From Trueperaceae bacterium (GTDB taxonomy: Bacteria; Deinococcota; Deinococci; Deinococcales; Trueperaceae), in assembly GCA_965215565.1 (NCBI GenBank), contig CBDCDZ010000004.1, positions 2,080,001 through 2,144,000 of the forward strand: a stretch of DNA of 64,000 nt. The letters are read 5' to 3'. This document shows positions 25,027-54,291 of the stretch, piece after piece. Position numbers and translations under genes: made by a program. The first letter of the stretch is position 1. Each line of letters begins with the position of its first letter. The notes under the pieces were generated by a model, which searched no databases, was not told the origin of the DNA, and was given only the letters and a program-made list of their open reading frames with translations.

Positions 25027-25287
25027 TGGTAGTTCCAAAACGTACTGAGACAGAATGTCGCAGGTCTTATTGCGCAGCAATAGCGGGATTTCGTCTCTAT
25101 GGTGTACGTGCTAGTTATTGTTCATCCGTCCCTTCGGCTAGCGGGAGCGGTCCACGCGACTAAACTTCGTCCTTAATGGGCTTTCAGAAACGAAAGGGGA
25201 CGCAAGTTTGCTGCCTAGCAACGATATTTTATCTAGTGAGAGCGTTCCTGACCAGATGAAAGTGCCCCGGACGGGGTATATCTGCTA
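25027..25287 (-). mobile_element. MITE-like repeat expanded to ~260 bp by nested insertions
   Basis: Reverse-complement matches to both ends (gtagttcc..actgagacag; ctgaccagatga..tctgcta), interrupted by at least three inserts. Confidence 0.75.
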
Positions 25288-25288
25288 G

Positions 25289-25813
25289 TTATCGCTCCCA
25301 GAATGCAGGCGGCTCAACGCCTAACATCCGCAGATACACGTACCCTTGAGCGCGGTGGTGAATCTCGTTGTCGACGGCGTAGAGAACGAAGTATGGGTTC
25401 GGCATCGGCGGCAGACCGAAAGCGGACTCGGTAGCGCGAAAGCGTTCTGATGGGATGCGCGGCCACGCCTCTTGCAAGGTGGCACTGCTCTCGTCCCAAC
25501 GTCTTAGCAACTCGGCGCGGGTAGTTGTTTCTCTTTGAGCAGCCTCCGTTTTCTTCGCCCACTGCTCCATACTGAAGTCCGCACCTTCGCCTAAGAGGTG
25601 TTGAAGCGTAGGCTCGAGCATGATCGCCACCTCTAAGACCATCGCGCCAAAAGGTCGCATCGAATCCGCTGAGAAGGTGAAAAGCTGGTCCTCAGGAAAG
25701 GCTTGGGCCGTGCGGCGTGTCAAGCGTCTGTGCCCTTGCCAGTGCTCCAAAAGGGCTTCGGGGCTTAGAAAGACCTCTTTAGTCTCTACTTCAACTCCAT
25801 TGTTTGCGCTCAT
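25289..25813 (-). CDS. DinB-family protein
   Basis: HWQGHRRLTRR, NEIHHRAQGYVYLR.LG.EPP. Confidence 0.9.
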   Translation of the reverse strand: MSANNGVEVETKEVFLSPEALLEHWQGHRRLTRRTAQAFPEDQLFTFSADSMRPFGAMVLEVAIMLEPTLQHLLGEGADFSMEQWAKKTEAAQRETTTRAELLRRWDESSATLQEAWPRIPSERFRATESAFGLPPMPNPYFVLYAVDNEIHHRAQGYVYLRMLGVEPPAFWER

Positions 25814-25873
25814 GAGCCAACATCCTTTCGGGATCGCCTGAAGTCTTGCAACCTCAACTAAAGTCTAAAACCT

Positions 25874-25898
25874 ATTCCCGTCGGGACCTGTCGGGAAT
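25874..25898. promoter_or_regulatory. palindromic putative operator between dinB and the WYL regulator
   Basis: ATTCCCG-tcgggacctgt-CGGGAAT. Confidence 0.6.
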
Positions 25899-25917
25899 TC
25901 GTGGCATGATGAAACGT

Positions 25918-26883
25918 ATGTACGACCCTTCGATGCGCGTGCTGACGGTTTTAGAGCTTTTGCAGATTAGAGAGCGCATGTCGGGCGCGGAGTTAGCGGA
26001 GCGCTTAGAGGTGAGCCCCCGCACCGTGCAGCGCTACGTGGCGCGGCTTCAAGACTTAGGCGTGCCCGTGACGTCCACGAGAGGTCCAGGCGGGTCCTAC
26101 CGCCTCAGACCGGGTTTTCGGCTGCCGCCGATGATGTTCGGAATGGAGGAGGCGTTGGCGCTCGTGCTCGGGCTGGACGCGCTGACCTATCTGGGCTTGG
26201 GCGACATCGCGCCAGCAGCGACGGGCGCGAGGGTCAAGCTCGAGCGCGTGCTGCCAGACTCTGTTCGCGAGCAGGTGGACGCGCTCCGCGCCGCGCTGGA
26301 ACTAGAGAGGCCCCGTTGGACCGTAGACACGGATACCGCCGTTCTCACTCAACTCGCCGCCGCGATCCACGCACGTCAGCGCGCCACCCTAACCTACGTG
26401 GCGAGAGAGGGCAGCGTCACCTCGAGGGAGGTGGACCCGCTCGGGCTACTGCAACAGAGGGGGCGCTGGTTCTTAGCGGCGCACTGCCATCTAAGGCGAG
26501 ACCAGCGGCTCTTCCGCGTGGACCGCATCCAAAATGTGTCTCGCCTAGAGCGGACCTTCGAGCGCCCCTCTGAATTTGACCTCCGCGGCTTCGTAAGCAA
26601 GGGGCTCGCCTTCGCTACCGAACCCTGGCAGGCGACGGTCTGGCTCGAGCTGACCCAAGAAGCGTTGCAGTGCGCGCTGCCCTATCTTCCTCTAGAGAGG
26701 TCAGCAGAGCGTGAGGGAGACGGCTTTCTGCTCCGCTGTGAGGTTGCGGACCTAGAGGGCTTCGCCCTCTCCTTGCTCAATCTGCGCTGCGGGTTGGTGG
26801 TGCGTCATCCGCCGGAACTTAAAGAGGTGTTCGGGAGGGTGGCGAAGCGGGCGCTCGAGGTGGTAGGTAAGGCGTGCGCTTAG
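25918..26883 (+). CDS. YafY-type HTH-WYL-WCX transcriptional regulator
   Basis: MYDPSMRVLTVLELL, LEVSPRTVQRY, RWFLAA..C.LR...RLFRVDRI. Confidence 0.92.
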   Translation: MYDPSMRVLTVLELLQIRERMSGAELAERLEVSPRTVQRYVARLQDLGVPVTSTRGPGGSYRLRPGFRLPPMMFGMEEALALVLGLDALTYLGLGDIAPAATGARVKLERVLPDSVREQVDALRAALELERPRWTVDTDTAVLTQLAAAIHARQRATLTYVAREGSVTSREVDPLGLLQQRGRWFLAAHCHLRRDQRLFRVDRIQNVSRLERTFERPSEFDLRGFVSKGLAFATEPWQATVWLELTQEALQCALPYLPLERSAEREGDGFLLRCEVADLEGFALSLLNLRCGLVVRHPPELKEVFGRVAKRALEVVGKACA

Positions 26884-26918
26884 TGCCGGGGGAATACGGT
26901 ACTTTAACTTATAGGCGC

Positions 26919-26970
26919 CTCAGCATTTCAGCGAGTCAGGAAAACTTGAAACGCTGACCGCTGAGACGCT
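26919..26970. repeat. short-tandem palindromic repeat (TCAGCATT type)
   Basis: tcagcatttcagcgagtcagg...gctgaccgctgagacgct. Confidence 0.55.
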
Positions 26971-27030
26971 TCTACTCAAATTGAGGCTGCACTACGGCGC
27001 ACCTTCCGCGTGAAAGGTAGCCTGCACCCC

Positions 27031-27663
27031 ATGAAACAAGCTCTCATCATCGGTGCCACGGGGGGCATCGGCTCGGCGCTCGCGAAGCGTTTAGCGGGGG
27101 ACTACGCACTCATACTCGTCGGGCGTGACCAGACGAAGCTGCGCGAACTCAAAGGCTCGGCGGACGCGAAAGTCGTGCCGACGGACGTCTCGAGCGAACT
27201 CGAAGTTCAGGCCTTGTTCGATGAAATAAGCGAACTCGACCTCATCGTCTACACGGCGGGCGACATCCAACCCGAACTCCTCAAAACCGCGAGCGCCGAA
27301 AACTGGCGGCGCGTGATGGACGCGAACCTCACGGGCGTCTTCTTCACCCTCAAATACGCCGAAGCGAAACTGAACAAGGGCTCGCGTATCTTCGTCATCG
27401 GCGCTCGCCCCGAGTTGGTCAAGTATCGCGGCTTCGGCGCGTACGCCGCCGCCAAAGCGGGCGTCGCCTCGCTCGTGGAAATCGCCGCTGAGGAGATGAA
27501 GCGCAAGGCGTCCCTGACGCTCGTGCTGCCCAAGGCGGTGGATTCAGACTTTTGGGACAACGTAGGCAAACCGCCCAAAGGTGCGCTCAAACCCGACGAA
27601 GTCGCCCAGGCGATTCAGGAAAGTTTGCAGGGTGAGGCGGAGGAAAAACTCCGAGTCGGTTAA
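27031..27663 (+). CDS. short-chain dehydrogenase/reductase
   Basis: GATGGIG, YAAAK. Confidence 0.9.
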   Translation: MKQALIIGATGGIGSALAKRLAGDYALILVGRDQTKLRELKGSADAKVVPTDVSSELEVQALFDEISELDLIVYTAGDIQPELLKTASAENWRRVMDANLTGVFFTLKYAEAKLNKGSRIFVIGARPELVKYRGFGAYAAAKAGVASLVEIAAEEMKRKASLTLVLPKAVDSDFWDNVGKPPKGALKPDEVAQAIQESLQGEAEEKLRVG

Positions 27664-27687
27664 GGCTGTATCCGTACGCAATACAGT

Positions 27688-27870
27688 TAGCAGGTATCAT
27701 CTGGTCAGAGTGTACGAAGTTTTGCGAAGCAACACTCTCACTTTGTGAAACGATGTCGAGCACGCACTTTAAGGGATGAAATCCCGCAACGGCAGGGCGG
27801 CCTGCCCGTAACGCTAGTCCTACGGACAGAGACCTGCGTTCAACTGTCTCAGTGTGTCGTGGAACTGCTT
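27688..27870 (+). mobile_element. MITE-like repeat with two nested insertions
   Basis: Collinear with 20550 copy except inserts at ~27711-27731 and ~27780-27828. Confidence 0.85.
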
Positions 27871-27874
27871 AGTA

Positions 27875-27903
27875 TAGAGGCAGGTTTGAAACCCGCCTCT
27901 ACA
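27875..27903. repeat. REP-like palindrome
   Basis: TAGAGGCAGGTTT-g-AAACCCGCCTCTAca; related to 49241-49270. Confidence 0.6.
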
Positions 27904-28006
27904 AAGCGCAGCGTTCAGATGTATACGGGGCAGTGCTCACAACATAGATTTCTAGCTACATGTGCGAAAACGTGAAAAATCTTGCACAAACCCTTAAACT
28001 GACTTC

Positions 28007-29209
28007 ATGCGCACATGGTGGCAACCTCCAACCCTGAGCAGAACGGATAGCGAACGGCGGGCGGGCTGGCTCGAGCTGTTCTACGATCTCGTTTACATCG
28101 CAGCCGTCATCGAGTTGGGCTCCTACTTTCACGGCGAGCTGACCCCTTTAGGCACGCTACGCTATATTTTTCTCTTTCTCATCGTCTGGTGGTCATGGTC
28201 GGGCACGACCTACTATGAAAACCGCTTTATCGCCGACGACGCGCTCCACCGCATCCTCATCTTTTTGCAGATTTTCTTCGTCGGCAGCCTCGCCGGGAAC
28301 ATCCCGCGGGCGTTCGGCGAGGGCGCGGCTATCTTTGCGTTCTCCTACGCGGCGATCCGCATCATCCTGATCCTTATGTACGCGCGAGCTTACCGCGCTG
28401 TGCCGAACAGCCGCCCGCTCATCCGCAACTACACCGCCGGCTTTTCGCTCGGGATCTTATGCTTTATCGCCTCGATGTTTGTACCCGCACCCTGGAACTA
28501 CGCGCTTTGGGGGCTAGGTATCGGCGCAGAAGTTATCGTGCACATGCTTTTCGGAACGCAGGGACTCGAGCGCCACTTCCCCTTCAACCTCAACCACTTG
28601 AGCGAACGCTACGCGCTCTTCATCATCATCGTTTTAGGCGACTCGTTTATCAAAGCCATTGGGCGCACCGCCGAGGAAGGCATCGGTCCGAACACGTATA
28701 TCTTTGGCGCGATGGGCGTGCTGATGACGGTGAGCTTGTGGTGGACGTATTTTGACGACGTGGCAGAAGCCGCCCTCCGTCAAGGCTACGACTCGCTGAC
28801 CTCTTGGGTCTACGCGCACTTCCCGCTCTCAGTCGCTATTGTTGGCTTTGGCGTGGCAGTGGAGGACGTGACGCAGCTAAGGGTCAGCGTACCGATGGAA
28901 ATGCCCCTCTTCTGGCTCCTCTATCTGTCAGTGGGCGGCTACCTCTTAGCGACCTCTTGGGTGGACGTCCTCACCGAGACGAGTGCGCCGCAGCTCGGCT
29001 TAGAGCGCGCTTACATGCGCGTGGGCTCAGGTCTCGCCCTCGTCGCCTTCGCCGTGCTCTACACCTATTTAGGATGGGAGATGTCCGCGCTCTGGACGGT
29101 TGGGCTCGTGTCAGGTGTCTGCGCCGCACAGATTATCTACGACCTCTCGCATAGCCGTGAAAAGAGCGAGGTGCACGCCGAGGTGAAGGAGGTTCCAACC
29201 GGAGACTAA
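28007..29209 (+). CDS. low temperature requirement protein A (LtrA) family membrane protein
   Basis: WLELFYDLVY, HLSERYALFIIIVLG, WWTYFD. Confidence 0.9.
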   Translation: MRTWWQPPTLSRTDSERRAGWLELFYDLVYIAAVIELGSYFHGELTPLGTLRYIFLFLIVWWSWSGTTYYENRFIADDALHRILIFLQIFFVGSLAGNIPRAFGEGAAIFAFSYAAIRIILILMYARAYRAVPNSRPLIRNYTAGFSLGILCFIASMFVPAPWNYALWGLGIGAEVIVHMLFGTQGLERHFPFNLNHLSERYALFIIIVLGDSFIKAIGRTAEEGIGPNTYIFGAMGVLMTVSLWWTYFDDVAEAALRQGYDSLTSWVYAHFPLSVAIVGFGVAVEDVTQLRVSVPMEMPLFWLLYLSVGGYLLATSWVDVLTETSAPQLGLERAYMRVGSGLALVAFAVLYTYLGWEMSALWTVGLVSGVCAAQIIYDLSHSREKSEVHAEVKEVPTGD

Positions 29210-29270
29210 TGTTGGACAAGAGAAAAGGCGCAGCTTATACTGCGCCTCTTCTCGTAAAGAGGTCAGCGTT

Positions 29271-29762
29271 TTACGCTCGAGCCTCTTGATTAATCGAAGT
29301 CTCCGCAAGTTGCGAGAGTTTTTTGTCCGTCGACTCCTCTTGCTGTAGGGTCTCCTCTAAAATGCTCTGCACCTCGTCTAAGTTGAGCTGACGCGCGTAC
29401 GTCACCGAGGAACCGTAGCCCGCCATGCCGTAGTGCTGCATCCGCTGGACGGCGGCGACGATGGTGGCGTCTAAAGCTGCACCTTGCTCGTGCTCGCTCA
29501 CGTGCTCCTTGCCCTCTTTGATGAGCCCTTCCATACCGTGGCAGAACTCACCCTCCAAGGAAAAGTCCATGATCTGCGCCACACGCTCCAACTTCTCTAG
29601 CTGCTGCTTCGTCTCCTCCACGTGCTGGTTTAGGGCGTCTTGGAGCTGCGGCGACTGGGTCGCGTTGGCGATTTCCGGGAGCGCGTTCATTGCTTGATTA
29701 CCCGCGCTATAAAGGTCTTTGAGTTGGTGTTTGAGTACGTCTTCTAAGGTCTGTAATGCCAT
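29271..29762 (-). CDS. YciE/YciF ferritin-like (DUF892) protein
   Basis: LKDLYSA, CHGMEGLIKEG, TLQQEESTDKKL. Confidence 0.9.
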   Translation of the reverse strand: MALQTLEDVLKHQLKDLYSAGNQAMNALPEIANATQSPQLQDALNQHVEETKQQLEKLERVAQIMDFSLEGEFCHGMEGLIKEGKEHVSEHEQGAALDATIVAAVQRMQHYGMAGYGSSVTYARQLNLDEVQSILEETLQQEESTDKKLSQLAETSINQEARA

Positions 29763-29898
29763 ATTTTGCCCCTTTCATAAGTAGGGTAAAGCAGACGCAA
29801 AAATAAGACCGTAGATTGTGGCGAAATGTTGGGGAGAAAAGCAGCAACGAGCAATCCAGTCGAGCTGGTTCGCGCTAGCACTTGCGAAGCAAACGAAC

Positions 29899-29947
29899 GG
29901 TGAGTTGAAAGTGAAAGTCAAAGGCTTTTCACTCATTGCTCATTGCT
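29899..29947. repeat. AGCAATG-type heptamer palindromic repeat
   Basis: gtgaaagtcaaaggcttttcactcattgctcattgct; relatives at 30866, 45152, 62932. Confidence 0.6.
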
Positions 29948-30833
29948 GTTTTATCCAGTGTAGGACGTTATTTTCTAGCTCCAACGTCACTCGCCCTGAC
30001 TCACGCAAATACGTCAGGTACGCCATCACCGTGCAGAGGTTGAGGTAGTAGCGCGGCACATCTGTCATCTCGATGTGAAGTTTTTTACAGGTGTTTTGGA
30101 GAACGGCGGCGGTATCTACGCCTGCACAGACCTCTTCAATCACATCCGCCGCTCGTTGAAAGGTTTCTACATTCTTCCGAACGAGTTCGCCGACCTCTTC
30201 GGTGGGTTCGCCGTGACCGGGGAGGATGACCCGAGCCTCCAGCGTCACCATCTTTTCGGCGCTTGCTATCTGCCCTCCAATGTCCTGACCAAAAGGAAGC
30301 GGGTACTTCTCCAACGCGCTTTCACCAAACACCGCGTCCGCCGCAAAGAGCACATCACCGACTTTGACGGCGTAGTGCGTATGCGCATGACCGGAGGACT
30401 CGGTAATCTCTAAAGTGAGCCCAGCAAACTCGAGCGTTCCCGGCTCCAAGAGGTGATGCACGGGCGAAGGTTTCGCCAACAGCCACTTCGAGAGGAGTTC
30501 TTTGGGAGGTTTCGCGCCACCGAAGAGGTAGACGGGTTCTAAATACGGGCTCTGCATGATGCTCGCCTCGAAAGGTGGGGCGTAAACGGGTAAATTCAGA
30601 TTCCTGACCAAGTAGTCGTTGCCGCCGTAGTGGTCTGCGTGCGCGTGCGTGTTGACAATGGCGATAGGTGTTACGTTCAGCGAATCACACGCCTTACGGA
30701 TACGTCGCCCCGCATCTTTGTCGCCGCCTGTATCTACAAGAACGGCTTGTTTGTCATCTCCAACGAGAATAACCGAGTTGACGCCGCCGGGGAGGTAGAA
30801 GACGCTTTCGCTGAGTTGGATGGGGTTAGACAT
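29940..30833 (-). CDS. MBL-fold metallo-hydrolase
   Basis: THAHADH motif; start moved to ATG after TATGCT. Confidence 0.88.
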   Translation of the reverse strand: MSNPIQLSESVFYLPGGVNSVILVGDDKQAVLVDTGGDKDAGRRIRKACDSLNVTPIAIVNTHAHADHYGGNDYLVRNLNLPVYAPPFEASIMQSPYLEPVYLFGGAKPPKELLSKWLLAKPSPVHHLLEPGTLEFAGLTLEITESSGHAHTHYAVKVGDVLFAADAVFGESALEKYPLPFGQDIGGQIASAEKMVTLEARVILPGHGEPTEEVGELVRKNVETFQRAADVIEEVCAGVDTAAVLQNTCKKLHIEMTDVPRYYLNLCTVMAYLTYLRESGRVTLELENNVLHWIKQQ

Positions 30834-30865
30834 AGCTCGAGCATACCTAACTGCGTGTTTCGAGT

Positions 30866-30911
30866 AGCAATGAGAAACGAGCAATAAGTGAAAACCTCTA
30901 GACTCATTGCT
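30866..30911. repeat. AGCAATG-type heptamer palindromic repeat
   Basis: agcaatgagaaacgagcaataagtgaaaacctctagactcattgct. Confidence 0.65.
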
Positions 30912-30959
30912 GCTAGACCTCTTTACCTGAGCAACCGGACAGGGTGTAGCTCTGTTCCC

Positions 30960-33125
30960 TCACGCTGCTAACCCCGCCCGCACGCATTTCAACACGCCGT
31001 AGTCGTAGCGCTCCCCTAACTTTTCAAAAAGAGGTCTAAGATACGGCTTCTCTTCTTCGGGCAAATCGAAAAACGTCTGTTCGATGAAGGTAATCTCCTC
31101 TTTCGGCAGCTTCGTCGCCTCTTGGGCGGTGAGTTGACCTCTCGAGACCAGCTCCGCTAAATGATTCTCCACCGTGCGCATCTTGAGGTTACGCTCGCTC
31201 GCCACCTCCTGGAGCGTGTGTCCTGCTAAGACGAGCTGTAAGGTTTGCTCATACGTGTCGAGGTCGTCTTCAGCAGGTTCCAAAGGTAAAGAGGTCACAG
31301 GTGAAGTGGCTTGGGGCGCAACATCCGCGTACTGTTGCAACACCTCTAGGAACGCTTCGCCGTAGCGCTCCAACTTCGTCTTCCCTACCCCGGTGATGGC
31401 GTTCATCGCACCTAAGCTCTGCGGCACAACCTCCGCCATCTGCTTTAAGGTGGCGTCGTGAAAGATAACGTAAGGGGGGACGCTCTGTTCTTTGGCGAGT
31501 TCGGTGCGTAGGGTGCGTAGGGCGTTGAAAAGTTCTAAGGTCTCCCCCGTCAATTCAACCGCTTTGTTGCTAGTCGCACTCTTCTTCACAGGTTTGGGGT
31601 CCCGCCGGAAAGAAACAGTCTCTTGACTTTTGAGGACGGCGGCGCTCTGCGGCGTGAGGAGTAAAGAGCCGTAGCCGCCCCCGTCACTCGTCAAGTAGCC
31701 CCACGAAACGAGCTGCCGCAGCACCGAGCGCCACTGTTTTTCGTCCAACTCCGTACCGACACCGAAGGTGCTCAGCTCGTCGTGTTTCAAATTCTTCATG
31801 CGCGGCGTGTTCTTGCCTAAGAGCACGTCAATCACATGACCTGCGCCGAAACGCTGCCCCGTGCGGTAGACCGCCGAGAGCGCCTTTTGCGCCGCTACCG
31901 TGCCGTCCCAAGTTTCGACGGGGTTTAAGCACGTGTCGCAGTTGCCGCAAGGCTGCTCCAAAGTCTCGTCAAAATACGAGAGGAGCAGTTGACGCCGACA
32001 TCTGGGGGACTCGCAGTAGCCTAAGAGAGCCTCGAGCTTCTGCTGCTCGATTCGCTTGAATTCCTCGCTCGCTTCGCTGCCCGCCAACATCTGCCGCAGC
32101 ATGACCACGTCCGCTAAACCGTAAGTCATAAAGGCGTTCGAGGGCAATCCGTCGCGTCCGGCGCGTCCGGTCTCTTGGTAATAGCCCTCTAAGCTCTTCG
32201 GTAAGTCAAGGTGCGCGACAAAACGTACGTCCGGCTTGTCGATGCCCATCCCAAACGCCACCGTTGCGACCATCACGACGCCCTCTTCCAATAAAAAGCG
32301 CTCTTGATGCCGCTGGCGCATCTCGCTCGTCAACCCTGCGTGATAGGGCAGCGCTTTGATGCCGCGCTTGCCGAGCCAATCGGCCGTCTTCTCCACGCTC
32401 TTGCGCGACAAGCAGTAAACGATGCCCGCGTCGCTGAGATGCTCGCGCTTGTAAAAGTCCAAAAACTGCTGCTTGGCGTTGTTCTTGTCCACGACGGTGT
32501 AGCGGATGTTTGGACGGTCAAACGATGAGACGAACTGCCGCGCCCTTGTGAGATGCAAACGCTCCACGATGTCGCGCCGCGTGACCTCATCCGCCGTAGC
32601 AGTTAGCGCGAGGCGGGGAATATCCGGGTAACGTTCCGCTAGTAATGCCAACCCGCGATACTCCGGGCGGAAGTCGTGTCCCCACTGCGAGACGCAGTGC
32701 GCTTCGTCGATGGCGAATAGGGCGATATGACTGCGCCCCAAGAGGTCTAAAAAGCGCGGCGTCAAAAGGCGTTCGGGCGCGACGTATAAGAGGTCAAGCT
32801 CGCCGCGTAAAAGCTGATTTTCAACCGCGTAAGCGTCCGAAGAGGTGAGGCTCGAGTTCAAAAACGCCGCCTTAACGCCAAGTTGTAAGAGCGCGTCCAC
32901 CTGGTCTTTCATCAGCGCGATGAGAGGTGACACGACAATACCCACGCCCCGCCGCACCTGTGAGGGAATCTGAAAACAGAGCGACTTACCGCCGCCCGTC
33001 GGCATCAAAACGAAGGCGTCCCCACCAGCCGCCACATGCTCGACAATCTCCGCTTGTGCGCCGCGAAAGGCGTTGTAGCCGTAGACGGATGAGAGGATGC
33101 GTTCGGCGCTGGAGAGCGTGGTCAT
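30960..33125 (-). CDS. recQ: ATP-dependent DNA helicase RecQ
   Basis: [38 protein letters not shown] cysteines, one HRDC, C-terminal HTH. Confidence 0.97.
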
Positions 33126-33315
33126 AGGAGGTATTGTCTCACGTTGTTAGGGGCGAGGGCAAACGGATTCGTCACGTGGTTTGGCTCGAGATGGGAAGTG
33201 CAGACTCAGTCTATTAAAGCACTCTGGCTTTACCCTGAAACACGGAGCTGAACCCTAGAGAACTCAGCTTTGCACTTACTTTTACTTCGACCTCTTTAGG
33301 AGAGAACCGTGCAAC

Positions 33316-38147: not shown

Positions 38148-38243
38148 ATCTGACTAAAAACGCTCTTGGGGAGTAAACACACGTTGGCTCACACGTTACA
38201 GGATGATAGCTGCGTTTATTCAACTCAGTTTAGCGCGAACTAC
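38148..38243 (+). mobile_element. degenerate, left-truncated copy of the MITE-like repeat
   Basis: atctgact..aacgctctt...GGATGATAGCTGCG...ctcagt...gaactac, most similar to the 4720 copy. Confidence 0.5.
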
Positions 38244-42183: not shown

Positions 42184-42192
42184 TCATGAGGT

Positions 42193-42795: not shown

Positions 42796-42905
42796 TAGCA
42801 GGTATCATCTGGTCAGAGACACGCTCACTTTATAAAACGATGTCTAACACGCACTTCAAGGGATGAGACCCGCGCTCAACTGTCTCAATGTATTGTGGAA
42901 CTGCT
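42796..42905 (+). mobile_element. 110-bp MITE-like repeat
   Basis: Collinear with the 20550 copy over its full length. Confidence 0.85.
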
Positions 42906-42912
42906 GCTCGTA

Positions 42913-45097: not shown

Positions 45098-45151
45098 GGG
45101 AGTAGTGTACCAGTCAGTGGAGAGGGGTTCTGTTATGAGAGCGTAAATGGA

Positions 45152-45201
45152 AGCAATGAGGAACGAGCAATGAGTGAAACCCTTTAGACTCATTGCTCAT
45201 T
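45152..45201. repeat. AGCAATG-type heptamer palindromic repeat
   Basis: agcaatgaggaacgagcaatgagtgaaaccctttagactcattgctcatt, near-identical to 30866. Confidence 0.7.
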
Positions 45202-45325
45202 AGGTGAAGGCACAGGTTAAGGCTGAAAGCCGTTGCACTTTGTGCTCACCTGTAAGAGCCTACTGAGCTTTGCTCTAACCTGTTTGAGCTTCGCTCTGAC
45301 CTGTGCTTTCAACTCATTACTGCTT

Positions 45326-45946
45326 CTAAAACAACCCCTCCTGCTGCGCCGTATCAATCACCAAACTGTTCGGCTTCGCGCCCAGGTTGTCCATCTCCTC
45401 GCGTAAGACCTTTACGTCTTGCCACATGAGCCACTTGGGGGAGCCTTTTTCGCGGCTCGGGTTGCGTAAGAGGTAGGCGGGGTGAAACATCGGGTAGATG
45501 CGCACGCCGTTCCAGTCAAACCAGTTGCCGTGTGTTTTGGTGATGCCCTCTTTCGTGTTGACGAAGTACTGCGTGGGGATGTTGCCCAACGTCGCAATGA
45601 TCTGCGGGCGGATGAGTTTAAGCTGCTCCATCAAAAGAGGTTCGCTCGCGGCGATCTCTTCTGGCTTAGGGTTGCGGTTGCCGGGCGGACGGTACTTGAC
45701 GATATTGGTGATGTAGACCTCGTCGCGGTCAATCTTGACAGAGTCTAAAATGCGGTCTAGAAGCTGCCCGGCGCGTCCAACGAAGGGGCGTCCAGTGGCG
45801 TCTTCGTCCTCACCGGGAGCCTCACCGATGATGACCACGTTAGCGTCCGGGTCGCCCTCGCCAAAGACGAGGTTGTCGGCGGTGTCCGACAAGGCGGGGG
45901 GTTTAGGGGCTTCTTTGGCCTGCTGCTCGAGTTCGTCTAACGTCAT
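45326..45946 (-). CDS. uracil-DNA glycosylase, family 4-like
   Basis: [32 protein letters not shown]. Confidence 0.92.
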
Positions 45947-46103
45947 CGTTCCTCCTCATACGCGGTCAACCTCTCGAGCCTCAGTCAAGATAGCGAGAGG
46001 TCAACACCTTTGTCGTCGCAGCTTATAATGGTCTCTGTTGCAACAACCCATGACAAGGTTTCATTTTAACGCGGCGACGCGCGTAACGCGGTAAGCGGTA
46101 GCC

Positions 46104-46126
46104 AAAAAAACGCGCCGAAGCGCGTT
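46104..46126 (-). terminator. intrinsic terminator
   Basis: AACGCGC-ttcg-GCGCGTTTTTTT on the minus strand. Confidence 0.65.
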
Positions 46127-46151
46127 GTGTATAGAGGTTAAGATAACCGGG

Positions 46152-46532
46152 TTACGACTTGAGCGAAGTGAGGGGTGGACGCTGGCTCCGCACCTCGCGG
46201 CGCACTTTGGGCTCTAAACCGATCATCAAAAAGAAGTTCTCCAAGGCGTTCTCTTGCCCTTTAATGTCGGTGTGTTCGTCTTCAGCGGTGCCCGTCACAA
46301 AGGGAAGCTCTTTGTAACACTCGAGCGCCTCGATGACCACGTCGGCGGGGCTTTGCGCCTCAGCGACGTCGGTCAAGCGGGCATAGATGGTGCGCCGCGC
46401 TTCGGCGTGGCAGCGGAAGACCTCCGGGTTAGCAGTCTCCGGTGCGCGCAAGATATCTTGCTTGGCGATGCGCCTATAGTGCTTGAGCCCCCGTACGATC
46501 TCATCCGAACTAAGAACCACTTTTACATCCAT
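46152..46532 (-). CDS. hypothetical protein
   Basis: AGGAG SD, open frame, terminator downstream. Confidence 0.75.
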   Translation of the reverse strand: MDVKVVLSSDEIVRGLKHYRRIAKQDILRAPETANPEVFRCHAEARRTIYARLTDVAEAQSPADVVIEALECYKELPFVTGTAEDEHTDIKGQENALENFFLMIGLEPKVRREVRSQRPPLTSLKS

Positions 46533-46849
46533 CTTCACTCCTCTCTTTTGATTGGAAGCTATGTTACCTTTTGTGCTCTTACACCACTGTGAGAAAATAG
46601 GGATTGAGAAGGATGCTCTACCTTAATGAATTCGGTGCGTCTGTAATAGAGACGCACGTACTATTGACTATAACGCCTAAACCTCTGCGCAGAATAAAAG
46701 TGTGAAGAGCGGACGGTGCTACGGTTGAACTTTGAAAGCGTCACGTCCCTGACGCAACTTGTCAAAATAAAAACCTTTCATAGCACTCGCTCGCATCTCA
46801 CTATAAGAAATATCACATTCGCCTCGAAGAGCGCGCTCCAGGTAGCGCG

Positions 46850-47077
46850 TTAGGCTTCGAGCTTCTTGATAGGAATAGGCGGCAAATCTTTGAGTTCGCG
46901 CTCGCTCAGGTCCCCCCGGTAGCGTGCCAACTCCGAAATCTCCTGCGACTCGCTGCTGTAGCCGCACCTATAGCACTCCAACTCGGTAAAGCCCTCTAAA
47001 TAGACATATGTGACGGTATCGCTGCTGCCGCATTCGGGGCAGACCTCCCCGCGCTCGATTCCTTCGGCGTCGTACAC
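46850..47077 (-). CDS. small zinc-ribbon protein
   Basis: CPEC...CYRC; GGAGG SD before GTG. Confidence 0.7.
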   Translation of the reverse strand: MYDAEGIERGEVCPECGSSDTVTYVYLEGFTELECYRCGYSSESQEISELARYRGDLSERELKDLPPIPIKKLEA

Positions 47078-47218
47078 CCTCTCACCTCCATCGTTGTAGC
47101 AACAGAACATACTGAAACAAGTTACCGCGGATTTTAGCGCAGAGCGCTAACGGAACCTCGTAAGCAAGTTCTAAAGTGTGTCCTCTTCACTCAGCGTGTA
47201 GATACCCGGAGTGCAGAT

Positions 47219-47522
47219 GACCAGTCGGCACCCCGTTCTCGCGAAGCCGACCCGCTAGGCTTTGCCTGAAAGCGGAATGGCTCGCGGCTGAGCACGCGAA
47301 GTAACCTGCTACTAAGCTTAGCCCACCGAGATGAGCGTAGAGGTGTCGGCAAGCCTTGACGCGGCTGAAACGCGCCCATATAGAGGGCTCGAGCTTCCTC
47401 CTAGCGCAGCGACGTAGCTAAAAGAAAACCCTCTGTATGACCTCGTCAAGCTGAGCTGTCGGGACCTATCACGCGAAGAGGTTGTCGCGGCACAGCTAGT
47501 AAAGAGGTCACGCCGACGGCGT
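47219..47522 (-). ncRNA. candidate structured RNA of unknown family
   Basis: Consecutive hairpins with G-U pairs mostly favouring the minus strand; CATAAT at 47530-47535. Confidence 0.4.
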
Positions 47523-47570
47523 AACTCACATTATGGCACCCCCTTTTCAGTTTAGTATTACAATCGTCCC

Positions 47571-48041
47571 GTGACTCAGCGCTGGCTCCTCAAAACCGAA
47601 CCCGACGTGTTTAGCTTCGCTGACCTCCTGCGAAGCGCCGAAAAGAGCGCTATGTGGGAAGGTGTGCGCAACTATCAGGCGCGAAACTTTTTGCGGGAGA
47701 TGAAAGTAGGCGACAAGATACTTATCTATCACTCTAACTGCAAGCCGCCCGGCGTCGTCGGCGTGGCGGAGGTTGCCAAAGAAGCCTATCCTGACCCTAC
47801 CCAGTTCGACACCTCGAGCGAGTACTACGACGAAAAGTCGTCCAGAGATGACCCGCGCTGGACGGTTGTAGAGGTGCGCGGACTCCACCCTTTGGAGAGG
47901 TTTGTGCCGCTGCAAGAGGTGAAGGAAGAACCTGCGCTGGAGGGGATGAAGCTCGTTCAGCGCGGCAACCGCCTCAGCGTCATGCCCGTCACGGAAGCGG
48001 AATTCGACAAAATCCTAGCGTTAGGAGAGGTCTATGACTGA
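47571..48041 (+). CDS. EVE domain protein
   Basis: WLLKTEP, WEGVRNYQARN, YHSN, RLSVMPV. Confidence 0.93.
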   Translation: MTQRWLLKTEPDVFSFADLLRSAEKSAMWEGVRNYQARNFLREMKVGDKILIYHSNCKPPGVVGVAEVAKEAYPDPTQFDTSSEYYDEKSSRDDPRWTVVEVRGLHPLERFVPLQEVKEEPALEGMKLVQRGNRLSVMPVTEAEFDKILALGEVYD

Positions 48042-49206
48042 TACTTCACTAAGAGACGCGGCTAGAGCGCTGAGCGGCGAAACCGTCCAGACCCGCCGCG
48101 ACTTTCACAAGCATCCCGAAACCGCCTTCGAAGAGGTCAGGACGAGCGGCGTCATCGCTGAGAGGTTGGAGAAGCTCGGCTTAGACGTGCGCCGTGAGGT
48201 CGGCAAGACGGGCGTCGTCGCGCTTTTAGATTTGGGCGAGGGCAAGACCGTGCTCGTGCGGGCTGATATCGACGCGCTGCCCATTCACGACGAGAAAACC
48301 GTGGACTACCGCTCGGCGGTGGACGGCAAGATGCACGCCTGCGGTCACGACGGACACGCCGCCGTTCTGCTGAGCGTGGCGAAGATTCTGAGCGAGCGCA
48401 AAGACACCCTCTCCGGCAAGGTCATCTTCGTCTTTCAACCTGCCGAGGAGATCGTCGGGGGAGCGAGGGCGATGTTGGAAGACGGGGCGCTAGAAGCTGG
48501 GCCGGAGCACAGCATCGGCCTGCACCTCAGCTCGCAGTTCCCTACGGGCACGGTGGCGGTGCGCAGCGGTCCCTCGATGGCCGCGACGGATTCGTTTCGG
48601 CTCGTCGTCTCCGGTAAGGGCGGTCACGCGGCGCGTCCGCACGAGAGTGTGGACCCCGTGCTCATCGCCGCGCACCTCATCACGGGCTTGCAGAGCCTCG
48701 TCTCCCGCGAGACCGACCCATTGGACAACGCGGTCATCAGCCTGACCTCAGTTCGCGGCGGCACTGCGTACAACGTCATCCCCGAAAATGTCGAAATTAA
48801 GGGCACGCTCCGCACCTTTTTGCCGGAGACGCGCGACTTTCTTCAGGGCAGGATAGAGCGCTTTAGTGGAGATTTGGCCCGGAGTATGCGTGGGGCGGTA
48901 GGGCTCGAGTGGATCACCCAATCGCCCGCCGTAGTGAACGACGAGGCGATGACGGAGCGGCTGCGGAGCGTGGCGAGAGCCGTCGTCGGGGAGGACAAGG
49001 TGCTCGTCGCTCCGCCGATCATGGGCGGCGACGACATGGCGCTCTGGCTTCAGAGAGCGCCCGGTTGTTACTTCTTTTTAGGCGCGAGAAGCGAAGAGAA
49101 GGGCTCGCACTACGCGCACCATCACCCCATGTTCGACTTGGACGAGGACGCGCTACCCGTAGCGGTAGAGGTGTTGGCGCAAGGAGTCCTAGAGTTCCTG
49201 CGTTAG
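48034..49206 (+). CDS. M20D-family amidohydrolase
   Basis: HPE, RADIDALP, MHACGHDGH, FQPAEE. Confidence 0.93.
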   Translation: MTDTSLRDAARALSGETVQTRRDFHKHPETAFEEVRTSGVIAERLEKLGLDVRREVGKTGVVALLDLGEGKTVLVRADIDALPIHDEKTVDYRSAVDGKMHACGHDGHAAVLLSVAKILSERKDTLSGKVIFVFQPAEEIVGGARAMLEDGALEAGPEHSIGLHLSSQFPTGTVAVRSGPSMAATDSFRLVVSGKGGHAARPHESVDPVLIAAHLITGLQSLVSRETDPLDNAVISLTSVRGGTAYNVIPENVEIKGTLRTFLPETRDFLQGRIERFSGDLARSMRGAVGLEWITQSPAVVNDEAMTERLRSVARAVVGEDKVLVAPPIMGGDDMALWLQRAPGCYFFLGARSEEKGSHYAHHHPMFDLDEDALPVAVEVLAQGVLEFLR

Positions 49207-49240
49207 AAGCGTAGCCTATACACGTGAGGGTATGTACGGC

Positions 49241-49270
49241 GTAAGGGTAGGTTTCGAAACCCACCCTTAC
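49241..49270. repeat. REP-like palindrome between convergent genes
   Basis: GTAAGGGTAGGTTTC-GAAACCCACCCTTAC. Confidence 0.6.
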
Positions 49271-49297
49271 ATAACGTCAGAAGCACATCGGTTCGTA

Positions 49298-49753
49298 TCA
49301 GCTTTGCGGCGGCAAGAGGAAGACCAACCCGCCCGCGAGCAGCGCCAGACCCAACACCCGGCGCAAATCTATAGGGATCACACTGCCCGACCAGCCGAGC
49401 GCGTCCGCGAGCACGGAGAGCGTCAACTGCCCCAAGATGACCGCCGCGATGCCCGCAGCGACGCCGACGCGCGGCAGCGCGAAAGCGATAGAAAACACGA
49501 CGAATATACCGATGCCGCCCGCCAGCACGACGGTAGAGGCGGCTCTAGCGTCCACAGCTTGAAGAGGTAGCGCCCTCGAGAAGAGCACCAACAGCAGAAG
49601 TGAGAGCGTCCCGCCAGCAATGTTGACGAGTAAGCCCGTGAGGGGCGCGCCCAGTGACCTTCCGGCAAGGCTATTGAGCACCCCCTGAAAGCCGACCGCT
49701 AAACCGCCACACAGCGCGATGAGTAGTGCAACCAACCATCCGTTCACCTTCAA
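49298..49753 (-). CDS. DMT-superfamily (YdcZ-like) membrane protein
   Basis: Q..LN..L, GQL..S..AD..G pattern; about 5 TM helices. Confidence 0.8.
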   Translation of the reverse strand: MKVNGWLVALLIALCGGLAVGFQGVLNSLAGRSLGAPLTGLLVNIAGGTLSLLLLVLFSRALPLQAVDARAASTVVLAGGIGIFVVFSIAFALPRVGVAAGIAAVILGQLTLSVLADALGWSGSVIPIDLRRVLGLALLAGGLVFLLPPQS

Positions 49754-50060
49754 CCTCCTAAAGTTCGCAGAGCTATCTAACCTCTTCGAACCGCACCCTC
49801 GAGGCTTTTATCCTTGGGATGGTCTCCGCCACGCAGATATGCGCAACGGCTTTCATGGCACTCGGTCCGAGCCCCGCACAGCGTCATCTAAAAGGTGCGG
49901 GTGGAACCCTAGCCAAACGGTCTTTAAGAGTGTACCAAAATCTTCAGCTCGAGCCACCACCTCAAAATTCGTGAGAAACACACTAAGACCTTTTAACCTT
50001 TTGCCCTCTACGAACCTCTAAAACGTGATAGGTAAGGGCAAAATGCTATACTATACGCAG

Positions 50061-51020
50061 ATGAACGAGCGCACCGCCCACATCCTCGACCTCGTCACGG
50101 CGCACTACATTACCTCAGCGAAGCCGGTGGCGTCGGCTCCTATCGCCAAGCAACTCGGCGTGAGCAGCGCGACGGTCAGAAGCGAGTTTGCGGCGCTCGA
50201 GGAGGCGGGCTACTTAGCTCAGCCCCACACCTCAGCGGGGCGCGTTCCTACGGCTGAAAGTTACAGGCGCTACGCGCGCAAGTTCATTCCGCCTAAACGT
50301 TTGCCCAAACTCCAGCGCGACCTCTTGAAGATGCGGCTGAAAGGCGCGCACGGCGACACGCTCTTGCAGCAAGTTGCCAACGTCACCGCCGAACTCTCCG
50401 GCTACGCGGTAGTGGTGAGCCTGCCCGCCGATGACGACTTGCACACCCTGGAGATTCACCTCTCGGCGCTCTCGAGTACGCGCCTCTTAGCCGTCGTCGT
50501 TTTGGAAAACGGTCTCATCCGCCAACTCGTCTTGGATCTCGCGCCGACGCCAAGCGACGACGCGCTGCGTGAAGCCGAGAGGGGTTTACGCAGCTTGGAC
50601 GTACCCGTGCAAGAGGTTCCGGTGGCGCTTGTGAATATCGCGACGCGCGCCGAGGAAGAGGTTGCGCGCACCTTCCGCGCTTTAGCCGACGCTTGGCCCA
50701 CCATGAACCCGCCCCGGCTCTTCTCGCAGGGGCTCAAAAACCTCTTGACGGAGCCCGAATCCACCGACCCAGAGTTCGTGCGCATGGTGGTGGAGCGCGT
50801 CGAGCAACCCAACACGGACGCGGACATAGACGAGGCGCTGCGCATTGTTTTAGAAGAGACCGTGGCACTGGTGTCGGCGCGTCTCGAGCTGGGCTCCTCC
50901 AAAGCCGGGTTGATGCTCTTAGGACCGCTACGAATGCGCTACCCCGAGACGCTAGCGATTGCGCAAGGGGTGACGGAGACGGTGGCGAAACGTGCCGAGC
51001 AACAGGCGAGCTTCAACTAG
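50061..51020 (+). CDS. hrcA: heat-inducible transcription repressor
   Basis: VSSATVR, QPHTSAGRVPT, GP.RM.Y. Confidence 0.93.
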   Translation: MNERTAHILDLVTAHYITSAKPVASAPIAKQLGVSSATVRSEFAALEEAGYLAQPHTSAGRVPTAESYRRYARKFIPPKRLPKLQRDLLKMRLKGAHGDTLLQQVANVTAELSGYAVVVSLPADDDLHTLEIHLSALSSTRLLAVVVLENGLIRQLVLDLAPTPSDDALREAERGLRSLDVPVQEVPVALVNIATRAEEEVARTFRALADAWPTMNPPRLFSQGLKNLLTEPESTDPEFVRMVVERVEQPNTDADIDEALRIVLEETVALVSARLELGSSKAGLMLLGPLRMRYPETLAIAQGVTETVAKRAEQQASFN

Positions 51021-51038
51021 CCGCGTTACACTAAGCAC

Positions 51039-51752
51039 GTGACGATTGAACTCCTTCTTTTTGCCAGCTACCGCGACCAGGTGGGTCAGCGGGAGATGAC
51101 GCTCGAGCTACCTGAGCACACAGACGCCCGCACAACCGTCCGTGATATCGCCGACAAACTCCAAGCCGACTACCCTGACCTCTCCTTAAAAGGCGCACTC
51201 TGCGCCCTCAACGAGCGCTACGTTTCCCCCGATCAAGAGGTCAAGGAGGGCGACACGCTCGCGCTTTTCCCGCCCGTGTCGGGTGGTGAGGTGGACGCGC
51301 CAGAGACCGCCCACCTCACCGATCACCTCTTTGTCACCGAGGGCGTTTTAGACCTTGCCCACCTGCACGCGCTCGCGGTGGCGGACCCTTACGGCGCAGT
51401 CGCGAGCTTTGTCGGCACGGTGCGCTCGCCTAACTTGGGGCGAGAGATCACGTATATCGACTACGAGGGGTACGAAGCGATGATCCTCACGCAGATGAAG
51501 GTGGTGGCGGGTGAGATGCGCGCCCGATTCGATCTGGGCAAAGTCGTCATCTCGCACCGCCTCGGGCGGCTCAGACCGAGCGAGGCGTCCATCGCCATCG
51601 TCATCTCTTCGGAGCACCGGCGCGCCGCGTTAGACGCGGCGCACGCCTGCATCGACCGGATCAAGGAGCTTTTGCCCGTGTGGAAGCGCGAGGTGAGCGC
51701 GCAGGGTGAGGCGTGGGTGGAGGGCTCGAGCGCTGCAGGCGAAACCTTGTAA
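51039..51752 (+). CDS. fused molybdopterin synthase MoaD-MoaE
   Basis: PPVSGG then SFVGTVR, YEGYE.M, HRLG.L, PVWKRE. Confidence 0.92.
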   Translation: MTIELLLFASYRDQVGQREMTLELPEHTDARTTVRDIADKLQADYPDLSLKGALCALNERYVSPDQEVKEGDTLALFPPVSGGEVDAPETAHLTDHLFVTEGVLDLAHLHALAVADPYGAVASFVGTVRSPNLGREITYIDYEGYEAMILTQMKVVAGEMRARFDLGKVVISHRLGRLRPSEASIAIVISSEHRRAALDAAHACIDRIKELLPVWKREVSAQGEAWVEGSSAAGETL

Positions 51753-51828
51753 ATGAGCGGTTGTAATTGTCGGTAGTGGGTTCAGGTTGAATGCCAACGG
51801 GCACTTCTTGCGCCGTTTCTGTGTGATG

Positions 51829-51852
51829 AACAAGGGGTTGCAACCCCTTGTT
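51829..51852. repeat. perfect palindrome (REP-like or terminator)
   Basis: AACAAGGGGTTG-CAACCCCTTGTT. Confidence 0.6.
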
Positions 51853-51944
51853 TTAACCTCCGCGTCATTTCGAATAGCGCCACTACCTAATTGTTAAAGA
51901 TGGAGAGGTTGCAGAGACCTCTTCATCTTTAACGTTCGTTCAGT

Positions 51945-52871
51945 CTAATTCGCTGTTCCTTGGGGCTCGTCGGGGATAGCCTCGAACGCTTCAGGCGGGT
52001 TCAGGAGCCGCCAGTTCCAACCCCCCTCGCGGCGCGGCGGCCAGATGACCGCTGTGGCCTGCCCTGCGATAGCGATGCTCTCGATGGGTCCGAAGTAGCG
52101 CGAGTCTTCGCTGCCGTTGGGCGAGCGGTTATCGCCCATGATGAAATAGTGACCCTCGGGGACGACGAGTTCGTGTAGGAAGGGTTCGCCTTCGGGAGCG
52201 TCGCTCGGAACAGGGGCGAGCGCGCTTACGGTGCCGCCATAGAAGAACTGCGTCGCGGGGTTGTCGACGGGCGCGGGCTCTAAACCGCCCAAGCCGCCCA
52301 AGCCGCCCTCGAACGTCCCGCCGACGAGACCTTGAAAGCCAGTTATCTCGCCGCCGTTCACCTCAACGACGGGGAAGTTTACGGGTTCGGGGCGAATCTC
52401 GCCGCTCTCGGTGATAAATCCTTGATCGAGCAGTTCGCCGTTGACGTAAACCTGCCCGTCTTGAATGTAGATGTGGTCTCCCGGCACGCCGATGACCCGC
52501 TTGATGAAGAAGCTGCGCCGCCCCGAGTTCTGCGAGTTGGGCGAGTTAGCGGGCTCGCGCACCACCACGATGTCGCCGCGCTCGTAGGGTCCCAAGATAC
52601 CCGCGCGGCGCAGCCAGGTGCCGTACTTGGGGATGAAGACCCTGTCACCCGTGAAGAGCGACTGGGGGAGCCTACCGCTGCCCCCGTCCAAATTTGGGCG
52701 CATCGACGAGCCCACCACGCCGACGGTTGTAAAGACGAACGTCACGATGAGAAACGCCACGACGAGCGCCTCGGCGTAGCCCCTCACTTCTGCCCAAAAG
52801 CGCTGCGAGGCGGTCTTTGGTGGCGGCTGTTCGCCAGACTGTTTAGAGGTTGCGGTAGCGTCAGTTGCCAT
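51945..52871 (-). CDS. lepB: signal peptidase I
   Basis: GSSMRPNL, FIKRVIG.PGD, GDNR...SEDSRYFG. Confidence 0.94.
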   Translation of the reverse strand: MATDATATSKQSGEQPPPKTASQRFWAEVRGYAEALVVAFLIVTFVFTTVGVVGSSMRPNLDGGSGRLPQSLFTGDRVFIPKYGTWLRRAGILGPYERGDIVVVREPANSPNSQNSGRRSFFIKRVIGVPGDHIYIQDGQVYVNGELLDQGFITESGEIRPEPVNFPVVEVNGGEITGFQGLVGGTFEGGLGGLGGLEPAPVDNPATQFFYGGTVSALAPVPSDAPEGEPFLHELVVPEGHYFIMGDNRSPNGSEDSRYFGPIESIAIAGQATAVIWPPRREGGWNWRLLNPPEAFEAIPDEPQGTAN

Positions 52872-53058
52872 AACGTGTAGTGTACCCTTTCGAGATGACG
52901 ACTCGTTTGGGCAGGGCTACGCGCGCACCTGTGAACAAATCATCAAAAAGCGCGGCGCGGTGGCGAAAATCAGCGCCGAGTTCATAGCTGGGTTCTCTTT
53001 TGCGGCGGAGAGTATTGCGGAGACTGTTGGTGTATTTTGCTCCTGCACATACCACGCC

Positions 53059-53985
53059 CTAGCGCAAACCCTTCACAGGAACAAAAAGGTCCTCCGGTAT
53101 CCCTTCGGGCGGCGTGTACGCCTCGATGACCTCTTGAGACAGGAGTCCGGCTTGCCCGAAAACGCGCATTGCCTCCCACTCGCCGAGCGCCACGATCTCG
53201 TCGAACGCCCAGAACGACTCGACGCGCACGTGCGGCATGGCGTGTTGGACGCGCACGTCGGCGGGGTGCATGTTGTACTGGATGTCGGTCAGAATGCTCT
53301 GCATGATGTCCGTGGAGCGCAAGACCATCTGCGCCATGAGGCTGCGGCGCTCGAGCTTGATCGTCGCCGTCATCCGCCGCCACCAATTCTCGTCCCCCAA
53401 GGGGTCAGAGAACGCGGCGCGGCGCGGCGCAGTGGCGTCGCTGGCGATGGAGCAGTTCGCGCCCAAAAAGGCGACGGCGTTCACCGGCAGGTTGTTCACA
53501 ATGCCGCCGTCCGCCAACATCCGCCCGTTGAAACTGACGGGCTCGAACGCGCCGGGATAGCAGCTAGACGCGCGCACCGCCGTGACCAAGTCGCCCTCTA
53601 GAATAAAGACTTCGTCGCCCGTTTCCACATCCGTCGTAGCCACCGCGAGCGGCTTTTTAAGCTCACCGAAGTCGGCGGGCAGGTGCAGCGCCAAGAGGTC
53701 ATGGAGCTTCTCGCCCTTGAGGAGCCCCGCTTGCATCGAGAAGTCCAAGAGGTGACGCCACGAGACCGACTTAGCCAAATCAAAAATTTCGTCGGCGCTG
53801 TAGCCGCTCGCGTAGAGCGCCCCTAAAATTGCGCCGATGGAGGTGCCCGCCACCACGTCCACGTGGATATTCGCCCGCTCCAACACACGCAGCGTGCCGA
53901 TGTGGGCAAAGCCCCTCGCGCCGCCGCCGCTCAGGATAAGCCCAACCTTGCGCTTGTTTTTGCCGGGACGTTCCGTCAACTCCAT
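53059..53985 (-). CDS. patatin-like phospholipase
   Basis: GGGARG, GTSIG, DGG. Confidence 0.93.
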   Translation of the reverse strand: MELTERPGKNKRKVGLILSGGGARGFAHIGTLRVLERANIHVDVVAGTSIGAILGALYASGYSADEIFDLAKSVSWRHLLDFSMQAGLLKGEKLHDLLALHLPADFGELKKPLAVATTDVETGDEVFILEGDLVTAVRASSCYPGAFEPVSFNGRMLADGGIVNNLPVNAVAFLGANCSIASDATAPRRAAFSDPLGDENWWRRMTATIKLERRSLMAQMVLRSTDIMQSILTDIQYNMHPADVRVQHAMPHVRVESFWAFDEIVALGEWEAMRVFGQAGLLSQEVIEAYTPPEGIPEDLFVPVKGLR

Positions 53986-54137
53986 ACCTGAGCATTTTAC
54001 CACCGCAAGATGAACTTTGGAGGTGCGGATGTGAACAGCGCGGGTCTCAGCTTGTCTCGGCATCTAGCGGGGTCACCAGCAGATGCTCCAACGAAGTCGC
54101 CGCTCAGCTAATCCGGGCGATTACACCACGCGCTATA

Positions 54138-54291
54138 TAGCAATTAACATAAGTACTGATTGGAATAGCGCAAGTCTCAGCCGCAGGCTAGCGGGATTTC
54201 ATTCTCAAATGTGCGTGCTGCTTACGAAGTTTTCGAAAGCGAAACGGTGTTCTACATCGTGAGAGCGTCTCAAACCAAATGATACTTGCTA
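54138..54291 (-). mobile_element. MITE-like repeat (subfamily 2) with two nested insertions
   Basis: tagcaattaacataa...caaaccaaatgatacttgcta. Confidence 0.8.

Follow-up and report, generated by a model that had tools for sequence, protein, structure and literature searches.

Three copies of a 111-bp repeat in a 64,000-nucleotide stretch of a Trueperaceae bacterium (GenBank assembly GCA_965215565.1, contig CBDCDZ010000004.1, positions 2,080,001 to 2,144,000; the whole stretch is called the window) carry short extra pieces of DNA at the same internal site. This raises the question of what these pieces are and how they came to lie inside the repeat. The original prediction took them for very small mobile sequences. 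We conclude that they are insertions and not ancestral parts of the repeat, and we give a probability of about 0.55 to the reading that they are non-coding units of about 17 to 28 nt which go in at target adenines, without duplication, and are inserted singly as single-stranded DNA (ssDNA) by a trans-acting enzyme. Below, G000 is the genome under study and C4 its 4.39-Mb contig that holds the window; relatives of the same genus are labelled Trueperaceae.

All motifs named in the original prediction were found at their positions in the window. The three loaded copies share an insertion point at site 72 of the repeat, with the expected leader when the host is read forward, and the third insert, which splits the left end near 25260, is a unit of family H. 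The insert of the 27688 copy, described as one longer hairpin, is in fact a 25-nt family A unit with a 27-nt family E unit nested in it. The second motif does recur at several sites, but the ACGAAGTTT matches belong to two families, C at site 23 and B at site 48. Its variant at 25200 is present too, but as part of a B unit split by nested units. The loaded copies and their units are as follows:

25027..25287, minus strand: host copy, loaded at three sites
25066..25090, plus strand: family A unit of class II, in the place of the target A at site 72, GCA loop
25115..25221, plus strand: family B unit at site 48, interrupted behind its second base by nested units, about 83 nt in all
25138..25161, plus strand: family D unit, nested
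25162..25188, minus strand: reversed B core with a family-I-like piece, nested
25259..25278, plus strand: family H unit, splits the left end of the repeat
27688..27870, plus strand: host copy, loaded at sites 23 and 72
27711..27732, plus strand: family C unit at site 23, class I, like small dispersed repeat (SDR) 5, two cGNAg mini-hairpins, last base is the target A
27780..27831, minus strand: family A unit (25 nt) with family E nested inside
27788..27814, minus strand: family E unit of 27 nt, lacking a GNA loop and bounded by GC at both junctions; the family also occurs in transposase genes
54138..54291, minus strand: host copy, loaded at sites 48 and 72
54176..54198, plus strand: family A unit, GCA loop
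54222..54244, plus strand: family B unit at site 48, class I

The loaded 25027 copy is no assembly artefact, because a single short-read contig of run X1, which may be the source sample, spans 24400-26048 without any difference. Contig joints that skip units were explained by other copies of the repeat.

The host repeat has the ends TAGCAG/CTGCTA and occurs at 551 loci on the chromosome, 364 of them near full length; 210 of the latter contain an insert of at least 12 nt. Since a 3-bp target duplication surrounds 172 of 335 full copies, the repeat behaves as a miniature inverted-repeat transposable element (MITE), with inverted ends, target duplication and no open reading frame (ORF). Neither a cognate transposase nor an autonomous partner was found in G000; IS630 genes near 1.93 Mb were considered as partner and rejected as decayed and merely interrupted. 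Matches to the repeat were found in 5 of 31 genomes, namely G000, G001, G002, G005 and G018 (one 26-nt match).

From 485 well-scoring host loci we extracted 439 inserts. As many as 301 measure 20-25 nt; 72 fall at 40-52 nt, 36 at 60-70 nt, 6 at 26-39 nt, and 10 are shorter than 20 nt. The longer ones are mostly units nested in units, and two of about 103 nt resemble another small repeat. Inserts lie at positions 8-13, 19-24, 48-50, 66-76 and 89 of the host repeat. Sorting by eye gave about nine families, A to I, with discrete unit sizes within a range of about 17-28 nt. The leader-plus-hairpin pattern of family A had 182 matches (overlaps counted twice) compared with 3 in a Markov-simulated genome, and this excess together with the size peak places the insert signal beyond chance. 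Folding energy provides no evidence, because the z-scores of single units are weak (-0.4 to -1.8).

That the units are derived is apparent from genes. A 24-nt family B unit lies in frame and in sense orientation at C4:643216, in a gene that we take from its motifs to be hicA-like, and the G002 orthologue is empty. The same gene (C4 about 643130-643370) has a frameshift relative to G002 downstream of the B unit. Family E interrupts a Mutator-family transposase (Pfam PF00872) of G000 whose homologues in G001 and G002 are uninterrupted, and, in G005 and G063, a different transposase whose homologue in G079 is without the unit. About 0.9 Mb of G001 and G002 DNA with 97 repeat loci was also compared. 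Both flanks were orthologous at 40 of the 97, and at 20 of these G000 had the repeat too. Most of the 20 intervals are independent insertions of the repeat; by eye, six are true orthologues, and four of them differ by one unit. A candidate orthologous copy at C4:1979198 was dropped, as the backbones differ.

The copies within G000 point the same way. On a backbone tree of 344 copies, which uses about 70 columns, load changes numbered 89 at site 72 (shuffled 98.6, minimum 85), 76 at site 48 (shuffled 87.7) and 69 at site 23 (shuffled 72.7); unit load hardly follows the tree. Near-identical copy pairs were discordant at site 72 in 180 of 364 cases. One 52-nt cargo occurs in 10 flank haplotypes among 17 copies. 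The combination of left and right flank haplotype in filled copies was known from an empty copy in 57 of 88 cases (shuffled mean 25.6, maximum 36), and the same comparison of empty with empty copies gave 89 of 183. Long conversion tracts between copies are unlikely, because filled copies keep both flanks in combinations that are also seen empty. Empty orthologues and filled copies with both host flanks thus bear out the predicted very small mobile sequences, derived by insertion. This reading was to be given up if the inserts were ancestral segments or if their motifs did not recur at independent sites; the inserts are not ancestral, and the motifs do recur.

The junctions follow a rule that involves one adenine. 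Class I units start with T, form two mini-hairpins and enter cleanly just 5' of an A, or end in a purine that replaces the A; in families B, C, H and I entry is clean 5' of A, or a final G takes its place. Class II units replace the target A, as seen in 115 of the 116 units with a canonical one-base empty allele. The lost base was A in 84 of 85 units of family A (135 pattern matches, 89 with any empty allele), in 18 of 18 of family F (25 matches), in 10 of 10 of family D at the canonical boundary (22 matches, 12 with an allele) and in 3 of 3 of family G. No unit has a long target duplication. Counted by site cluster, the target base is A in 27 of 29, and in 13 of 14 when B, H and I, whose boundaries favour A, are left aside; in this clustering both repeat arms are pooled, and some variants end up in separate clusters. 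At site 72, 173 of 183 empty copies carry the complementary T, and the same base is found in 276 of 283 haplotype-matched pairs. Six of the 183 carry G, two of them with a hybrid junction resembling a deletion scar, from which it follows that loss of a unit does not restore the target. The idea that the leader acts as a guide is not supported: the constant end of family A resembles the target only loosely, and leader variants do not clearly track target alleles.

The window contains both ancestral and altered copies:

20550..20660, plus strand: empty host copy, ancestral state
54859..54969, minus strand: empty host copy
42796..42906, plus strand: host copy without units, G at site 72, hybrid junction; likely the deletion scar of a lost family A unit
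4720..4808, plus strand: truncated host copy

A second rule concerns the loops. Most loops on the strand of the target A are GNNA or c(GNA)g. The site-23 units, which were picked out by their host flanks alone, all begin with T (63 of 63) and have GNA or GNNA loops in 59 of 63 (first hairpin) and 54 of 63 (second). The first hairpin of family B is cGNAg in 141 of 157 units, with all four middle bases (the G was part of the search pattern). G..A loops are present in 26 of 40 distinct family A variants and the reversed loop in 1, while background hairpins have them in 381 and 344 of 4173. GNYA loops, which the RNA rule GNRA excludes, occur among the units; GNRA-compatible loops also occur in family A. 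According to passages of PMC13037366, GCGNAGC and GCGNNAGC form very stable, nuclease-resistant DNA mini-hairpins, and their RNA versions are much weaker. The loops are a DNA mini-hairpin signature on one strand. The fixed leader of the original prediction is the 3' end on the strand with the GNA loops.

The original prediction had the elements target the repeat. They do use a few fixed sites in it, and 114 of 135 family A units and 74 of 89 family C units lie near the MITE, but units also occur in genes and in other repeats, at least four other repeat hosts in all. A first genome-wide indel scan with 11-nt flanks gave mostly noise, and a flank filter kept 438 of 1198 groups. The exact patterns are lineage-limited: B was found in 3 of 61 genomes, E in 5 of 121 and C in 4 of 201, with 0 matches for backwards-pattern controls. 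Viral contigs contained no B or D pattern; a looser SDR5-like pattern had 66 matches there, mostly chance, 2 of them in HIP1. A metagenome scan gave candidate matches in three contigs, at one site. Seven non-Trueperaceae records have B-like matches, most of which are symmetric palindromes of greater length. These B-like hairpins (L079, L083, L084, L087, L097, L099, L082) come from Acidimicrobiales, Spirochaetaceae, Clostridia and Desulfovibrionaceae, and some lie in nested hairpin mosaics.

Like the inserts described here, the small dispersed repeats of Nostocales, reportedly described by Elhai et al. in 2008 and mentioned in PMC2884548, are very short, with lengths of 21-27 nt. The suggested likeness was tested on Nostoc plasmids. 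Relatives of a 21-mer inserted in HIP1 were found in 70 plasmid records, 47 of them from Nostoc. Plasmid pNPUN01 (350 kb) has three such 21-mers, two of which lie in a duplicated stretch, each with a T start and two GNA hairpins. Five plasmids were chosen for their many matches, with loops and junction base left free in the pattern and the loops counted by eye. Among 57 Nostoc 21-mers, the first hairpin has a GNA loop in 54 and the second in 53, and all 57 are followed by A; the control gave 0. One Nostoc variant comes close to being a site-23 unit. From size and site we infer that the Nostoc 21-mer is SDR5, which passages of PMC4390886 and PMC13756078 describe as a 21-nt module entering between the third and fourth bases of HIP1, hence at a position 5' of an A.

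Class I shares with the Nostoc 21-mer the T start, the two cGNAg hairpins and the A that follows, so that the predicted 'undescribed system' is not supported for this class, whose design is already that of the HIP1 insert known as SDR5. SDR5 is about 21 nt long, and the units here, 20-25 nt in the majority of inserts, are likewise dispersed; both insert precisely without duplication and have empty sites in relatives, although class II here loses one base. Like SDRs, the units are found in genes, intergenic DNA and other repeats. In contrast to SDR5, which enters HIP1 (GCG|ATCGC) only, they go into other A contexts in the MITE and in further repeats; family E differs also by its GC junctions and its lack of a GNA loop. 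From SDRs in general the units differ in occurring in Deinococcota, in the A replacement of class II and in the deep nesting of about nine families. Class I resembles SDR5 in design and behaviour but has targets other than HIP1, and the units are a variant of the cyanobacterial SDRs. Class II and the nesting go beyond the SDR descriptions, to judge from passages of the later papers. A literature search found no report of such units in Deinococcota or of an A-replacement rule, although the original 2008 SDR paper may already note loops or junctions. The most frequent 8-mers of G000 are GCTCGAGC (1576) and AAGAGGTC/GACCTCTT (1366/1298), a HIP-like over-representation.

Other hairpin systems were compared as well. 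With REP/REPIN-RAYT and IS200/IS605, as treated in passages of PMC6006769, PMC3733652 and PMC3116915, the units share a hairpin of 20-40 nt with a fixed unpaired part, an ssDNA logic and repeat mosaics. Unlike them, they lack a GTAG or CGTC tag on the 5' side of the hairpin, are inserted into other DNA as single units and not as dimers, and in class II lose a target base. NTS/SRM-Ssn repeats are likewise oriented hairpins cut as ssDNA, but the GIY-YIG nuclease Ssn has been shown to cut and not to insert (both from passages of PMC11893778). Seven GTCATTC...GAATCT repeats, CGTC/NTS-like and with a C-like interior, lie at C4 517444, 1020489, 2351572, 2364369, 2688164, 3586161 and 4187352; no Ssn-like gene was found beside these seven.

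As helper, the original prediction had named a HUH/RAYT nuclease or a reverse transcriptase (RT) with units on its flanks. No RT was found in G000, G002 or G005; group II-type RTs are present in G001 and G063. G001 has four RT copies (L158, L160, L162, L163), each with an open frame of 618-637 aa in which about 175 nt interrupt the Pfam match. A free Y1 gene was absent from G000, G001 and G002, the last two lacking Y1 altogether, and the sole Y1 domain of G000 lies inside a 1319-aa Eco57I-type restriction-modification enzyme. In this enzyme (L022:4708-8667, minus strand) Y1_Tnp (HUH) is inserted at aa 707-811, and a PLD-SNF2 helicase gene adjoins. Three GIY-YIG matches in G000 are not flanked by units or hairpin repeats, and a search for a nuclease or recombinase gene flanked by units found none; ten ORFs with units on both sides turned out to be ordinary genes between two repeats (N-termini judged by eye). 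Of the mobile enzymes tested, IS110 alone is present in all three unit-rich genomes. In G000 it has seven identical copies, all inserted at positions 9-10 of the repeat around a TC core and without loss of a base:

C4 638904, 681817, 1227201, 1291182, 2530389, 3106709, 4136505: identical IS110 copies

In the mechanism that we favour, the GNA strand would be copied or peeled from a donor as short ssDNA, and its mini-hairpins would both shield it from nucleases and serve as the recognition feature of the helper. This helper, most likely a HUH-like strand-transfer or nick-and-ligate enzyme for ssDNA, would act in trans and open the same target strand at an A. Each family would prefer its own few-base context, mostly in hairpin-forming repeats, and class II would lose the target A during joining. 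Replication would then fix the insertion, and the transposing MITE would carry the cargo along.

Several points weigh against this. No helper for the units was found in G000, and target-base loss is not known from IS200/IS605 or REP-type HUH chemistry. Two family D units replace G instead of A, and family E (27 nt) fits clean insertion with GC at both junctions and no GNA loop. The second hairpin of family B is GNA in 22 of the 65 copies having that hairpin, and one family A subfamily has a GAA/AAA loop on the opposite strand. Unit filling has no leading/lagging bias and, in 186 copies with co-directional flanks, no sense/antisense bias; this test is weak, given a faint skew whose minimum is 0.5 Mb away from dnaA, and any bias would be blurred by later MITE moves. 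The backbone tree has few columns, and its copies may recombine. Both the ssDNA intermediate and a de novo event are things that we infer.

Among the rivals, very short-tract conversion has a modest chance, roughly that of one roll of a die. In this account rare accidental founders arose at each site and were spread by conversion or ssDNA annealing through host enzymes, the hairpins diversifying later. It would explain the few fixed sites per family, the one composite cargo in many backbones, the concentration of units in repeats (families A and C near the MITE), the co-occurrence of loads (62 against 34.3 expected) and the failure to find a dedicated enzyme. But copies that share a cargo have flanks that diverge within 3-5 nt of the junction, which is too short for ordinary recombination; the same families lie in unrelated hosts and in single-copy genes, the Nostoc HIP1 sites share only 8 nt of context, and the founders would still require an A-specific insertion step. 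A slightly smaller chance goes to the copying of a small RNA, onto which an RT would jump at an adenine of the target transcript, the cDNA being recombined back. The RTs of diversity-generating retroelements stall at A. The group II-type RT genes of G001 and G063, the GNRA-compatible loops of family A and the sense orientation of the only class I gene insertion also speak for it. It is opposed by the lack of any RT in G000, G002 and G005, by the missing sense bias in the 186 copies, and by the loops themselves, since GNYA tetraloops, and triloops whose middle base is free, suit DNA and not RNA (passages of PMC13037366).

It is improbable that the resident IS110 bridge recombinases use the units as minimal donors. 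IS110 is present in all unit-rich genomes and, like the units, enters the same repeat end without duplication; positions 9-10 are also an entry site of families A, D and H, and its donor junction has a 9-nt word in common with one family A leader variant, possibly by chance. However, IS110 is an autonomous element of about 1.1 kb that keeps every target base around its TC core, whereas class II loses its A, and the targets of D, F and G have no common core. A multitude of bridge RNAs would be needed for the many unrelated targets, family E occurs in G005, where IS110 has no match, and IS110 matches also occur in 6 of 14 control genomes. Next to nothing speaks for the inserts being ancestral parts of a longer repeat that were deleted in short copies. 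Some loss does occur, as the six empty copies with G and the two hybrid junctions indicate, but no deletion could bring back the same A at many sites, and units that interrupt genes with whole orthologues refute this account. Patterns B and C are absent from G005 despite its repeat; 11 G005 copies are short, but they were picked with an empty query and are therefore biased. Beyond the insertion by a trans-acting enzyme that we favour for Trueperaceae, it is a more tentative and rather doubtful idea that Trueperaceae units and Nostocales SDR5 form a cross-phylum class of 'oligonucleotide transposons', in which 21-28-nt GNA-capped ssDNA goes in at or replaces one A by a chemistry unlike that of DDE, HUH, RT or bridge recombinases.

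Within the window, the genes flanking the loaded copies are ordinary, and a search of Rfam at the gathering threshold matched nothing. A decayed partial copy of the host repeat lies at 38149-38229. A second repeat family, of the AGCAATGAG type, is found at 29916-29944, 30866-30915, 45152-45201 and 62952-62978; elsewhere in the genome repeats of this type also host B- and C-like units.

How sequences of about 21 nt move has been an open question since SDRs were described in 2008. The function of SDR5 is still called unknown in a 2026 paper (a passage of PMC13756078). The hundreds of filled and empty pairs in G000 turn this question into two testable rules: the GNA mini-hairpins are of the DNA type and lie on one strand, and that strand also holds the A at which, or in place of which, the unit enters. 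Both rules apply to the Nostoc HIP1 insert as well, which makes the question approachable in culturable Nostoc. If the proposed reading is true, a short oligonucleotide would be written over a single base with no double-strand break and no homology arms; an enzyme of this kind would represent new chemistry and possibly an editing tool.

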